DNA of 57,521 bases, from NCBI GenBank assembly GCA_030018805.1, contig JASEHL010000001.1, forward strand, positions 1 through 57,521, read 5' to 3'. Made by a program: the position numbers and the translations under genes. The notes under the pieces were generated by a model. The model was given only the letters and a program-made list of their open reading frames with translations, was not told the DNA's origin and did not search any database. Source of the DNA: Patescibacteria group bacterium (GTDB lineage: Bacteria; Patescibacteriota; Minisyncoccia; Moranbacterales; UBA11712). Shown here piece by piece: positions 24,068-26,233 of this stretch (position 1 is the stretch's first letter; each line of letters begins with the position of its first letter).

Positions 24068-26233
24068 TTACTTATGAGACTTAAGCAGCTTAAGAAACCT
24101 ATTCTCATCCGTTGTTTTCACTCCCAGTTCCCTCGCTTTATCATACTTTGATCCCGGGTTTTTGCCAACCACGACATAGTCCGTATTCTTGCTGACTGAT
24201 GTTGAAATATCTCCTCCAAGCGCGCGGATTTTTTCCTTGGCCTCGTCGCGGGTCATGGTTTCCAGCTCACCGGTGAGAACGAAAGATTTATCATGGAACA
24301 TGGAACTTGGAACATGGAACTTGGAAATCTTTACCTGTACTCCTAATTTTTTCATCTTTCCTAGCAATTTTAAATTTTCTTTATTACCAAACCAATCAAC
24401 AAGACTTTCCGCAGACTTCTCGCCAATACCCTTGATATTTAACCACTTGTCCTTTCTAGTCTTTGAAAAAATATTTATTATATCGCTTAAATTATTAATT
24501 TTGTTCCATGTTCCATGTTCCATGTTATGTGAAATCAAAACCGCCGTTTCTTCCCCCACATGCCGAATCCCGAGCGCGAACAAAAGTTTTGGAAATTCAA
24601 TTTTTTTCGCTTTTTCGATTGCCTGCACCAGATTGTCCGCCGATTTTTCCGCGAATCTCTCAAGGGACTTCAGATCTCCCGTCTTCAGCTCAAAAATATC
24701 CGCCGTGTTCGAAACTAGTCCTTCGTTCATGAGCTGCTCAACAACCTTTTCACCCAGACCTTCAATATCAAAACCCTTTCGGGAAACGAAATGAATGATA
24801 TTTTCTTTTTCGATCGCGAAACACTTTTTGTTTTGGCAATAATGCGCCGCGCTCAAATTTTCATGGAGCATGGAGCATGGAGCATGGAGCACACCCTCTT
24901 TCTGGCCTTTTCTGCATTTTTTAGTTTTTGTTCCATGTTCCATGTTATGTGTTATGTGACGCCTCACTCTTCCTCCGCAAATCGGACAACGGGTCGGCAT
25001 ATGGAATTTTTTTTCTTTTCCCGTGCGGAGATTTTTGAGAACTTCAACAACTTCCGGAATTACGTCTCCAGCCTTGTGAATAACAACAGTATCTCCGATC
25101 CGGATATCAAGCCTTTTTATTTCGTCTTCGTTGTGAAGAGTCGCTCTCGAAACAATTGATCCAGCCACCTGCACCGGCCGAAGATGAGCAACCGGAGTAA
25201 GCGCTCCCGTCCGCCCCACCTGCACTTTTATATCTTCAACCACCGTCGTCACTTTTTCCGGAACGAATTTATAGGCCACCGCCCAGCGGGGTGATTTTCC
25301 GGTATAACCCAGCTGTTTTTGAAAATCGTTGGAATTTATTTTTACAACCACGCCATCAATGCCGTACTCTTGTTTGCTTCTTTTATGCTCCCAAGATTCG
25401 TATATTTTTTGAATTTCCTTTAAATTTCGGCATAATTTATAATTTTCATTCACCTTAAATCCCAAATTTTCCAGCAGCTTAAGCTCTTCGACTTGGGCTT
25501 CGGGAAAACCGTTTTTCTTTCCTTGTGTTATGTGTATCTCGTCAATATCATAAACATACGAGCTTAATTTTCTCTTGGCCGTTATTTTTGGATCCAACTG
25601 CCTGATTGATCCAGCGGCTGCGTTTCGAGAGTTGGCAAAAAGAGGAAGGTTGTTTTTCATTCTCTCCCTATTTAGTTTCTCCAAGTCGCTTTTTTTCATC
25701 CAAGCTTCGCCGACAACAATAATGTCGATGTCCATATTGAGCTTGAGCGGTACGCTCTGAATAGTTCTCACTTGCTCCGTCACGTTTTCACCGATTATGC
25801 CATCGCCTCTTGTCGCCGCTTGTTTAAGCAGTCCTTTCTCGTAGGTTAATATTATTTTCAGCCCGTCTATTTTTATTTCTGCGCAGTATTCGGGTTTTTC
25901 TCTTATGCCTTTTTTTCCGAGCATCCGGACAATTTTTTCTTCCCAGGCTTGAAGTTCGGAAAAGGAAAAAGCGTCATCGAGCGACCACTGCCGATGCTTG
26001 TGGCGAACTTTCTCAAATTTGGCAAGAGGCTTTCCGCCGATCCTTTGGCTTGGCGAATCCGGACTTCGCAGTTCCGGGTATTTTTCCTCGAGATTTCGCA
26101 GCTCCCGCATCAAGGAATCATAAACTTCGTCCGAAATCTCCGGCTTGTCCAAAACGTGATATTCATAGCGAAACCGGTCGATTTCCCGGCGCAGTTTTTC
26201 GATCCTTAATTTTGCTTCTTGCTTATTTTTCAT
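24068..26233 (-). CDS. ligA: NAD-dependent DNA ligase with three in-frame repeat inserts
   Basis: 721 aa with the adenylation motif EIKIDG, an OB fold, a Zn finger (CPICGG...CQNKKC), HhH repeats and a BRCT domain. Confidence 0.95.
24293..24333. repeat. (catggaac)-type heptad tandem array inside ligA
   Basis: catggaacatggaacttggaacatggaacttgg encodes [10 protein letters not shown]. Confidence 0.85.
24503..24531. repeat. inverse-orientation heptad array inside ligA
   Basis: gttccatgttccatgttccatgttatgtg encodes HNMEHGTWN. It is the inverted partner of 24293-24333, 170 bp away. Confidence 0.85.
24862..24960. repeat. complete heptad-armed hairpin element inside the ligA Zn-finger region
   Basis: catggagcatggagcatggagcatggagc, then a loop of about 37 nt, then gttccatgttccatgttatgtgttatgtg. 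99 bp, in frame. Confidence 0.85.

Follow-up and report, generated by a model that had tools for sequence, protein, structure and literature searches.

The present study investigated the heptamer repeats of ligA, the gene of the NAD-dependent DNA ligase (LigA), in a stretch of 57,521 nucleotides (contig JASEHL010000001.1 of assembly GCA_030018805.1, hereafter the window) from a Patescibacteria group bacterium, a member of the Candidate Phyla Radiation (CPR). It is likely that the heptad features of this gene are copies or relics of selfish foldback repeats, that is, gene-less derivatives or solo arms of cassettes built around a small four-helix-bundle (4HB) gene, which sit in frame in permissive loops of the ligase. 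The features discussed are located in Table 1, and related loci from other genomes are given by their L numbers.

The LigA of the window is full-length, scoring 813 bits against NF005932 (LigA equivalog), and every LigA Pfam domain was matched except the Zn-finger model, which fails on most of the Moranbacteria LigAs compared here; inserts evidently break domain models. Four period-7 arrays of the GGAACAT family were located in ligA by Tandem Repeats Finder. The Zn-finger peptide lies between C416/C419 and C466/C471 of LigA, and its hairpin consists, on the plus strand, of an arm (CATGGAG)x4.3 at 24862-24891, a unique loop of 37 nt at 24892-24928 and a second arm at 24929-24958, in which (TGTTCCA)x2.6 at 24929-24946 is followed by (TGTTATG)x2.3 at 24943-24958. 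Two further arrays are named R2 and R3, the latter being reported by the program as (CATGGAA)x5.0 at 24292-24326, where the 14-nt period is perfect. Six places in the window hold the GGAACAT family, and GGAACATGGAACAT, with at most two mismatches, has 16 matches there as compared with 0.44 expected, a number that none of 100 shuffles reached. Since the arrays were located by Tandem Repeats Finder and are enriched over chance, the array coordinates and the repeat description given in the original prediction for this DNA are therefore correct. An assembly artefact was rejected, as like inserts recur across dozens of assemblies made independently and a sequencing read is longer than the arrays. 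No sign of an intein or a self-splicing intron was found in ligA, where only LigA domains were matched in Pfam and NCBIfam and no Rfam model at gathering thresholds.

The closest LigA homologues of the window protein are named Candidatus Moranbacteria, and 120 close Moranbacteria LigAs with 62-78% identity to it were aligned as the orthologue set. The Zn loop is short, reading EIIKTGKKGEESAAHYC, in 54 of 119 orthologues, and in the remaining ones this very spot is filled by 15-45 additional residues, which fall into at least ten unrelated kinds; the Zn element is therefore a true insertion, and the Zn loop is a hot spot with rapid turnover of its occupants. At least 55 changes of state were counted on a neighbour-joining tree, the nearest neighbour is in a different state for 72 of the 119, and the HNMEHG-type insert of the window is common to P0002 only. 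At the DNA level, the occupants are of three types, namely heptamer-armed hairpins, GC-richer hairpins and plain tandem arrays. The original prediction had read three in-frame inserts in ligA and had proposed an alignment of orthologues as its check; this alignment upholds the Zn-finger hairpin, which is the only lineage-specific insertion among the ligA arrays, but not R2 and R3, where all close relatives have segments of the same length. The size claimed for the Zn element, about 33 aa added by 99 bp at 24862-24960, also needs adjustment: the in-frame element stands and comes to 34 aa in translation, but the net gain is only about 24 aa over relatives with an empty site (58 vs 34 residues between the motif ends), and about 31 aa over the E. 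coli LigA 2OWO (44 vs 13 residues between the cysteine pairs). A fourth ligA site, site A, lies just upstream of the KxDG motif and is likewise a hot spot, with a turnover like that of the Zn loop.

The arms of the Zn hairpin had been predicted to pair with G-T wobbles on the plus strand, and folding bears this out. As RNA, the plus strand reaches -37.3 kcal/mol (z = -4.28, 0 of 200 shuffles), whereas the ligA-sense strand, with A-C mismatches in place of the G-U pairs, reaches only -22.0 kcal/mol, which is not significant (z = -0.78); with DNA parameters the folding is weak on both strands. A native DNA hairpin at the empty Zn site was considered as an insertion target and rejected, the 9-10 bp stem GTGCGCCGCG/CGCGGCGCAT being present in L003, L005 and L006; with mean duplex energies at the site of -8.6 kcal/mol in 34 empty alleles and -7.3 kcal/mol in occupied ones, the stem is not general. 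It was also observed that residues 421-426 of LigA mostly read V-K-K-E-I-I with an AT-rich flank in occupied Zn alleles, and V-[KR]-R-E with a GC-rich flank in empty ones, which may reflect a shared local ancestry of the occupied alleles or an AT drift of the bases near inserts.

The two remaining arrays have a different history. R2 and R3 are mutually inverted and 92% complementary over 26 nt, the extended arms being 187 nt apart and the arrays themselves about 175 nt, which agrees with the opposite orientation and the enclosed HhH-coding sequence described for them earlier. The further statement that they add HNMEHGTWN and a 10-aa peptide is wrong when close relatives are considered, as a segment of the same length is present at both positions in all of the roughly 120 Moranbacteria LigAs, and these segments are also heptamer arrays at the DNA level, with a unit differing by species, for example (AAATTAC)4 encoding LQITNYKLQ and (TTACGTG)n encoding LRVTSYVLR. 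The R2 stretch is about 12 aa (about 36 nt) longer than in the LigA of E. coli or of other Patescibacteria, so that an ancient gain of about five heptamers, common to the whole clade, seems to have taken place at R2, and R3 overwrites a native linker of unchanged length. The two arms also co-vary across species. With units as different as GGAACAT in the window, GTAATTT in L002, GAAACTT in L067, GTAACAT in L069 and GTAACGC in L083, the summed R2-R3 complementarity in 32 distinct orthologous DNA sequences is 327.5 within species as compared with 249 +/- 13 between species, a value reached in 0 of 20,000 permutations. Strong matches between R2 and R3 are inverted in 11 orthologues and direct in four. 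For units that contain stops in the R2 orientation, R2 is imperfect and R3 is a perfect array, which suggests a process that makes the two arms converge and is limited by coding selection alone.

For R2 and R3, the foremost rival view is selection for a functional mRNA element, in which their stem, possibly together with the Zn hairpin, would be maintained as a site for RNase III or another nuclease that sets the ligase level, or as a translational pause between domains. The covariation of the arms in spite of their differing units and the predominance of the inverted orientation speak for it, as does the stem itself, which encloses about 190 nt and is significant in the ligA mRNA sense (z = -4.65, 0 of 200 shuffles); hairpins of the Correia type in mRNAs are known to be cleaved by RNase III (PMC10969869). 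Against it, R2-R3 pairing is lost, or R2 is replaced by an (AATTTYC)n hairpin, in about half of the orthologues, the Zn hairpin lacks significance on the mRNA strand, the hot-spot occupants are unrelated in sequence and shape and include tandem arrays without a hairpin, and the same elements are also found between genes and in other genes. Taken together, we regard such an mRNA element as unlikely.

The length neutrality of R2 and R3 against close relatives raises another alternative, in which the arrays are in-place microsatellites that arose at each site by slippage from native codons and were inverted by templated (quasi-palindrome) mutation, with no mobile element involved. Arrays that are homogeneous within a species and different between species would fit this well, and slippage does occur. 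In L141, a close relative with 78% identity and the same synteny, ligA is frameshifted inside (AATCTCC)3 at R2 (L141:5540-5600), so that the gene is called as a 570-aa ORF and a separate 92-aa BRCT ORF, with the rest of the gene intact in another frame; judged from this frameshifted allele, slippage of unit number is real in ligA. Local slippage does not predict, however, that sites which are not homologous should have sequence in common outside the repeat. The 5' arm of the Zn hairpin (mRNA sense) is 91% identical to R2 over 34 nt, flanks outside the repeat included, and the string TCACATAAC(ATGGAAC)nAAAA is found in R2 and the Zn loop of the window, in tsaD of L066, in site A of ligA of L071 and L072 and at the pilin start of L004, that is, with identical flanks at different sites and genes of different genomes. 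The HNMEHGTWN element of L066 tsaD lies in frame in the loop after GHIYANF, and the Zn arm TGTTCCATGTTATGTGTTATGTGA is identical in 24 of 24 positions to the arm of a 4HB cassette in L081. Full-length hairpins are dispersed as well: the nested hairpin between gatC and gatA has a homologous full-length copy at 18139-18196 (91% over 58 nt), and the intergenic hairpin with (GAATTAT)4 arms has a related copy at 56098-56175. On these comparisons, the ligA arrays appear to be copies and not local accidents.

The repeat unit itself argues in the same direction. The window contains 13 exact period-7 arrays with a length of 17 nt or more and none of period 6 or of periods 8-12, and in the Moranbacteria-like loci exact arrays number 20 per 100 kb for period 7, as compared with 0.4 (period 8) and 2.0 (period 6); it is the counts of exact arrays that separate period 7 from period 6, as a scan for imperfect repeats does not. 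Copy number in these loci tops out at about five heptamers. Such enrichment of a single period, with a ceiling and no long tail, is not what slippage would leave, nor would slippage be expected to tie the repeats to 4HB genes across phyla, and we consider in-place microsatellites an improbable source of the ligA arrays.

The link to 4HB genes is provided by the window and extends well beyond it. The GGAACAT unit of ligA had been predicted to form the arms of the cassette at 30893-31320 as well, and both Tandem Repeats Finder and the pattern matches bear this out, the arm arrays lying at 30893-30922 and 31291-31307. This degenerate cassette stands beside a prepilin peptidase gene, to which its left arm supplies the N-terminus MFHVPCSM, and it is orthologous to a cassette of L141 in which the 4HB gene is intact. 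The left arm of the second, intact cassette of the window overlaps the leader of the pilin gene 31870..32295. A third 4HB gene lies within the 16S rRNA gene (13891..15855, minus strand), which measures 1965 nt against a model of 1533 positions and holds some 430 nt of inserted sequence, which seems to lie in V3 (helix 17). The arms of this insertion fold at -50.7 kcal/mol in the rRNA sense as compared with -37.5 kcal/mol in the antisense, and its layout is that of a classical intervening sequence (IVS). The presence of PF05635 ORFs in CPR rRNA insertions is already on record (PMC11270868).

Every 4HB gene examined in CPR loci, the three of the window included, has inverted heptamer arms with differing units, the lineages being other Moranbacteria and Patescibacteria with Shapirobacteria- or Jorgensenbacteria-like 4HB homologues. 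The same arrangement was noticed at 12 of 13 plasmid-borne 4HB genes. Their hosts belong to the cyanobacteria, Chloroflexota and Spirochaetota, namely Nostoc, Anabaena, Dolichospermum, Aulosira, Planktothrix, Euhalothece, Chlorohelix and Treponema, and the case of Bernardetia, from the Bacteroidota, is less clear. Nostoc flagelliforme, for example, has (TAATTCG)4|ORF|(CGAATTA)4, and N. punctiforme has (CAATTCG)4 at either side. These cassettes lie inside operons, between cas2 and cas1, csx2 and cas1, drmD and pglX, or a helicase and a methylase gene. The 4HB protein of the window has homologues of at least 70% identity in CPR lineages in which LigA identity reaches only about 45-50%, which points to horizontal spread of the 4HB gene. 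The arms show a strand bias that is not decisive, as G-U pairing favours the 4HB sense in 9 of 15 cassettes. Full-text literature searches turned up no publication that treats 4HB cassettes with heptamer arms or hairpins lying in frame in CPR. As side observations, the cassettes within defence operons are those of L152, L153 and L159 (plasmids of Nostoc, Anabaena and Pseudanabaena), L154, L158 and L163, at cas2/cas1, csx2/cas1, DISARM drmD/BREX pglX and helicase/N6-methylase sites. The nearest solved homologue of the 4HB protein in the 16S IVS is PDB 2gsc (XCC0516 of Xanthomonas campestris), which has five chains; that heptamer arrays never exceed about five units is only a coincidence with this so far.

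An element residing in a gene has to be compatible with the reading frame, and this is what was observed. The inserts are stop-free and divisible by three in the window and in 31 of about 35 DNA loci, and the units found in coding sequence (GGAACAT, CATGGAG, CAGATAC, ATTTGGT and AATCTCC) are stop-free on both strands, a property of half of all possible heptamers. Several units of intergenic repeats and cassette arms (GAATTAT, ATTCGTA, AATTTTC and AGATGTG) do not have it. Because 7 and 3 share no factor, a heptamer array yields the same 7-aa repeat whichever of the three frames is read, for example HGTWNME. These properties bear on the possibility that the ligA hairpins are cut out of the transcript, the ends being rejoined or bypassed, and never appear in the protein. 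Such RNA-level excision would match the architecture of the 16S IVS of the same window, and two R2 hairpins point the same way, those of L010 (3100-3250) and L084 (4760-4950), which contain 3 and 7 in-frame stops but have a length that is a multiple of three, with the downstream half of ligA conserved. Nevertheless, neither freedom from stops nor divisibility by three would be needed in excised sequence, nor units stop-free on both strands; the probability of keeping the frame in both cases by chance is about 1 in 9, a plausible restart codon follows the insert in L010, and a split gene explains L010 and L084 equally well. To our knowledge, there is also no RNA ligation mechanism for the products of RNase III. 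Excision as a general account of the ligA hairpins is thus very improbable, and the stop-containing R2 subclade could represent either a split gene or RNA-level removal. L090, which lies at a contig end, belongs to the same ligA subclade as L010 and L084, with stop-containing R2 hairpins (3 to 7 stops). Separately, single TGA codons stand for a conserved Cys in L083 (CPI*GG) and a conserved Gly in L131 (RGD*IIGEN), ligA being otherwise intact in these metagenome contigs; they may be sequencing errors or something else.

With reference to these observations, the foldback-repeat interpretation that we favour would run as follows. The arms of the elements consist of about 3-5 tandem heptamers, the unit in this genome being GGAACAT, and the parent would be a cassette in which a small 4HB gene (PF05635, '23S rRNA intervening-sequence protein') lies between inverted heptamer arrays. 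This cassette would parasitise transcribed DNA such as rRNA genes and operons, and, by analogy with the behaviour of IVSs and Correia elements, it would be co-transcribed with the host gene and then released by cleavage of the stem. The elements probably land, or are copied, widely, and copies in genes would persist only where there is a permissive surface loop, a stop-free unit and a length divisible by three. The survivors would then be translated as low-complexity loops, presumably neutral for LigA. Slippage would keep the units uniform within one array, and templated repair or selection for pairing would keep the two arms complementary. The elements would accordingly serve themselves and not the ligase, as a CPR counterpart of the Rickettsia palindromic elements (RPEs). 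A wider proposal, which we put forward as tentative and rather doubtful, is that the unit of heptamers, 4HB gene and inverted heptamers is a hitherto unrecognised cross-phylum mobile cassette of transcribed DNA whose Avd-like protein recognises 7-nt units, and that it sheds hairpins and solo arrays into essential genes, the L010 and L084 copies maybe being removed or bypassed at the RNA level. If this were true, the short tandemly repeated repetitive (STRR) sequences of cyanobacteria, many rRNA IVSs and the inserts of ligA and tsaD would be one phenomenon.

Certain results weigh against the foldback-repeat interpretation. No transposase, target-site duplication or defined ends were identified for the heptamer elements, so that mobility is read from their distribution only, and the inserts often replace the native loop (at the Zn loop and the fourth site), unlike the products of cut-and-paste transposition. 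The loop of the Zn hairpin has no second copy in the window or in 164 loci, its arms alone being recurrent. The R2-R3 pair encloses native HhH sequence, co-varies and forms a strong mRNA stem, which could come from selection for functional RNA. Additionally, the AlphaFold2 model, built with 41 orthologues, has a pLDDT of 63.7 and values below 50 for residues 325-539, a range in which it cannot judge tolerance of the Zn loop; the same model gives R2 a helical form and R3 a coil, with moderate confidence.

A possible enzyme is encoded directly upstream of ligA, where a gene for an IS200-like Y1 transposase, resembling the REP (repetitive extragenic palindromic)-associated tyrosine transposases (RAYTs), lies at 26273..26938 on the minus strand. 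It matches PF01797 with an E value of 1.4e-5 and the REP-associated tyrosine transposase model weakly, and Y1 enzymes act on single-stranded hairpins without making a target-site duplication, so that the heptamer hairpins might be regarded as REP or REPIN-type repeats mobilised by this gene. However, the RAYT-like gene is flanked by its own, distinct palindromes, three copies of TACCCTAACATTSAATGTTAGGGTA at 26243-26270, 26948-26971 and 27022-27045, in a typical arrangement of RAYT plus REP; the heptamer hairpins have no sequence in common with this palindrome, which recurs in other loci, and the 4HB cassettes in the examined loci have no RAYT-like gene nearby. The RAYT was for this reason rejected as mobiliser, and mobilisation of the REP type is very improbable. 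The loci in which the TACCCTAACATTSAATGTTAGGGTA palindrome was also seen are L072, L069, L007, L089 and L013, and in the syntenic L141 no gene was called in the 120-nt gap at the position of the RAYT-like gene.

Among the other genes of the window, tsaD (54957..56105, plus strand) is colonised like ligA: it has about 56 residues beyond the span of the Pfam model and harbors three in-frame elements (Table 1). The F2 family also appears in LigA loops of L008, L072, L075 and L079, and both the F2 and the 'CCCTGTTAAAT' families are found in the tsaD of the window and in the LigA of relatives. Two more long intergenic hairpins of other families lie at 27135-27225 and 21613-21714, with GCTAAGGTTGAACCTTAGC in inverted pairs (-53 kcal/mol) and TTGGTGTGGGGG/CCCCCACACCAA, respectively. 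The heptamer arrays at 28668-28705, 32259-32323 and 30893-30922 overlap start codons or leader peptides, two of them in type IV pilin genes and one in the prepilin peptidase gene, a position typical of phase-variable repeats in genes of surface structures. Just downstream of the 16S rRNA gene, at 12974-13609 on the minus strand, a LAGLIDADG endonuclease ORF (12974..13591) overlaps an Rfam match to group II intron D1-D4 (13496-13609); no 23S rRNA was detected in the window. A phage- or plasmid-like block with a large polyvalent-protein domain (LPD38), an ERF recombinase and an SLT lysozyme-like protein lies beside the rRNA region at 4353-12622 (minus strand).

Table 1. Location of ligA, its heptamer arrays and the related elements in the window
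Feature	Coordinates	Strand	Description
ligA, NAD-dependent DNA ligase	24068..26233	minus	721 aa, intact ORF, KxDG motif, all four Zn-finger cysteines
R3 array	24290..24326	minus	(CATGGAA/CTTGGAA)5 in the HhH-BRCT linker; encodes 10 aa; 3' arm of the R2-R3 inverted repeat
R2 array	24502..24526	minus	(TGTTCCA)x3.6 within the HhH domain; encodes HNMEHGTWN; 5' arm (mRNA sense) of the R2-R3 inverted repeat
Zn-finger hairpin insert	24857..24958	minus	34 aa in translation
Nested hairpin, ATTCGTA heptamer arms	23697..23778		intergenic, gatC-gatA; z -5.5 and -7.0
Hairpin, (GAATTAT)4 and inverse arms	52567..52641		intergenic; z -6.2 and -7.2
(ATTTGGT)5.4 array	28668..28705	minus	in frame in type IV pilin leader peptide (MKKRIPNTKYQIPNTKSGFTLIELL)
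Degenerate 4HB cassette (PF05635/TIGR02436)	30893..31320	minus	flanked by (CATGGAA)4.3 and (TGTTCCA)2.4
Intact 4HB cassette	32259..32727	minus	gene 32322..32687, 121 aa; inverted (AATTTTC)n and (TTGAAAA)n arms
16S IVS	14999..15436	minus	PF05635 ORF 15035..15400 (E 3.6e-24); inverted (AGATGTG)-type arrays 14999-15033 and 15406-15436
Branched 'CCCTGTTAAAT' hairpin in tsaD	55348..55405	plus	in frame; intergenic twin 16473-16524
'F2' non-heptamer hairpin in tsaD	55600..55658	plus	in frame; encodes QSSTFPSQQRSCRDSSKSNF
(CAGATAC)5 array in tsaD	55934..55972	plus	in frame; encodes QIPDTRYQIPDTKY

If the foldback-repeat interpretation holds, two core enzymes of a tiny CPR genome, LigA of replication and TsaD of tRNA modification, are permeated by selfish hairpin repeats translated as part of them, and the loops that serve as recurrent landing pads constitute a natural map of insertion-tolerant sites in LigA. 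Inserts of this kind would inflate and diversify CPR proteins and can yield frameshifted or split gene calls. PF05635-encoding rRNA IVSs, the heptamers used for cyanobacterial fingerprinting and in-frame palindromic elements could moreover be read as one family of heptamer-armed cassettes, and the link to the cassette would offer a concrete handle on the function of the very abundant, uncharacterised PF05635 family; this generalisation at the level of the cassette is the part most worth pursuing.

Among the known systems, the RPEs, which insert in frame (Ogata et al. 2000, reviewed in PMC10969869), are the ones that the ligA inserts resemble functionally. Both are small palindromic repeats without a transposase, dispersed as several families in a reduced genome and found in frame in unrelated housekeeping genes; RPEs are translated as extra peptide segments, and the ligA inserts, being likewise in frame, presumably are as well. 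Hairpin folding (z = -4.28 for the Zn element, -4.65 for R2-R3, -5.5 to -7.2 for the intergenic hairpins) and dispersed copies are in line with RPEs, and in-frame insertion absent from orthologues, another RPE property, was found for the Zn element but not for R2 and R3 against close relatives. Unlike the ligA elements, RPEs measure 100-150 bp, have a conserved family sequence, lack tandem heptamer arms and are not tied to a protein-coding parent cassette or to rRNA IVSs. We know of no description of hot-spot turnover or of arm covariation for RPEs. The rRNA IVSs reportedly encode 4HB proteins of PF05635/TIGR02436 in Leptospira and Coxiella. They resemble the ligA hairpins in that the arms of the latter are of the same kind as those of the stand-alone 4HB cassettes of the window, and the 16S IVS is itself an ORF between helix-extending arms; the ligA elements differ in lying within a protein gene, in having no ORF in their 37-nt loop and in being apparently translated rather than excised. 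No description of IVS arms as heptamer arrays was found in the papers searched.

[quoted passage not shown] In MITEs, the terminal inverted repeats are defined and match a parent insertion sequence (IS), and target-site duplications are left; here, neither a junction duplication nor an IS element with matching ends was found, and the only linked gene, that of the candidate parent, encodes a 4HB protein. Heterocystous cyanobacteria are the classical hosts of heptamer repeats, and the cyanobacterial STRR heptanucleotide repeats were reportedly described by Mazel et al. in 1990. In Geobacter metallireducens, 49 elements of four heptanucleotide repeats are present within and between genes (PMC2700814). 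These repeats and ours have in common tandem heptamers in about 4-5 copies, with dozens of copies within and between genes, and in Nostocales plasmids heptamer arrays flank 4HB genes, some of them with the TAATTCG unit that is also found in hairpins of the window. In the papers searched, however, the STRR and Geobacter repeats are described as repeats or putative regulatory sites and not as cassette arms or in-frame hairpin inserts, and the literature searches found no paper linking heptamer repeats to 4HB genes.

Eukaryotic foldback transposons such as the FB elements of Drosophila have long inverted arms of short tandem repeats and a variable or absent centre. They differ from the ligA elements in being eukaryotic and of kilobase size, with a transposase in some copies, and there is no evidence of common descent. 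In the simple-sequence contingency loci of phase variation, the length of the unit is likewise no multiple of three, and the repeats stand in coding sequence or at the 5' ends of genes for surface proteins, to which the pilin leaders and the ligA frameshift of L141 can be compared; the present arrays differ in that they lie in essential housekeeping genes, form inverted pairs as well as hairpins and have a link to a cassette. In summary, arms made of tandem heptamers, the kinship with PF05635 genes and IVSs, the occupation of hot spots and the covariation of arms across species set these elements apart from RPEs and MITEs.

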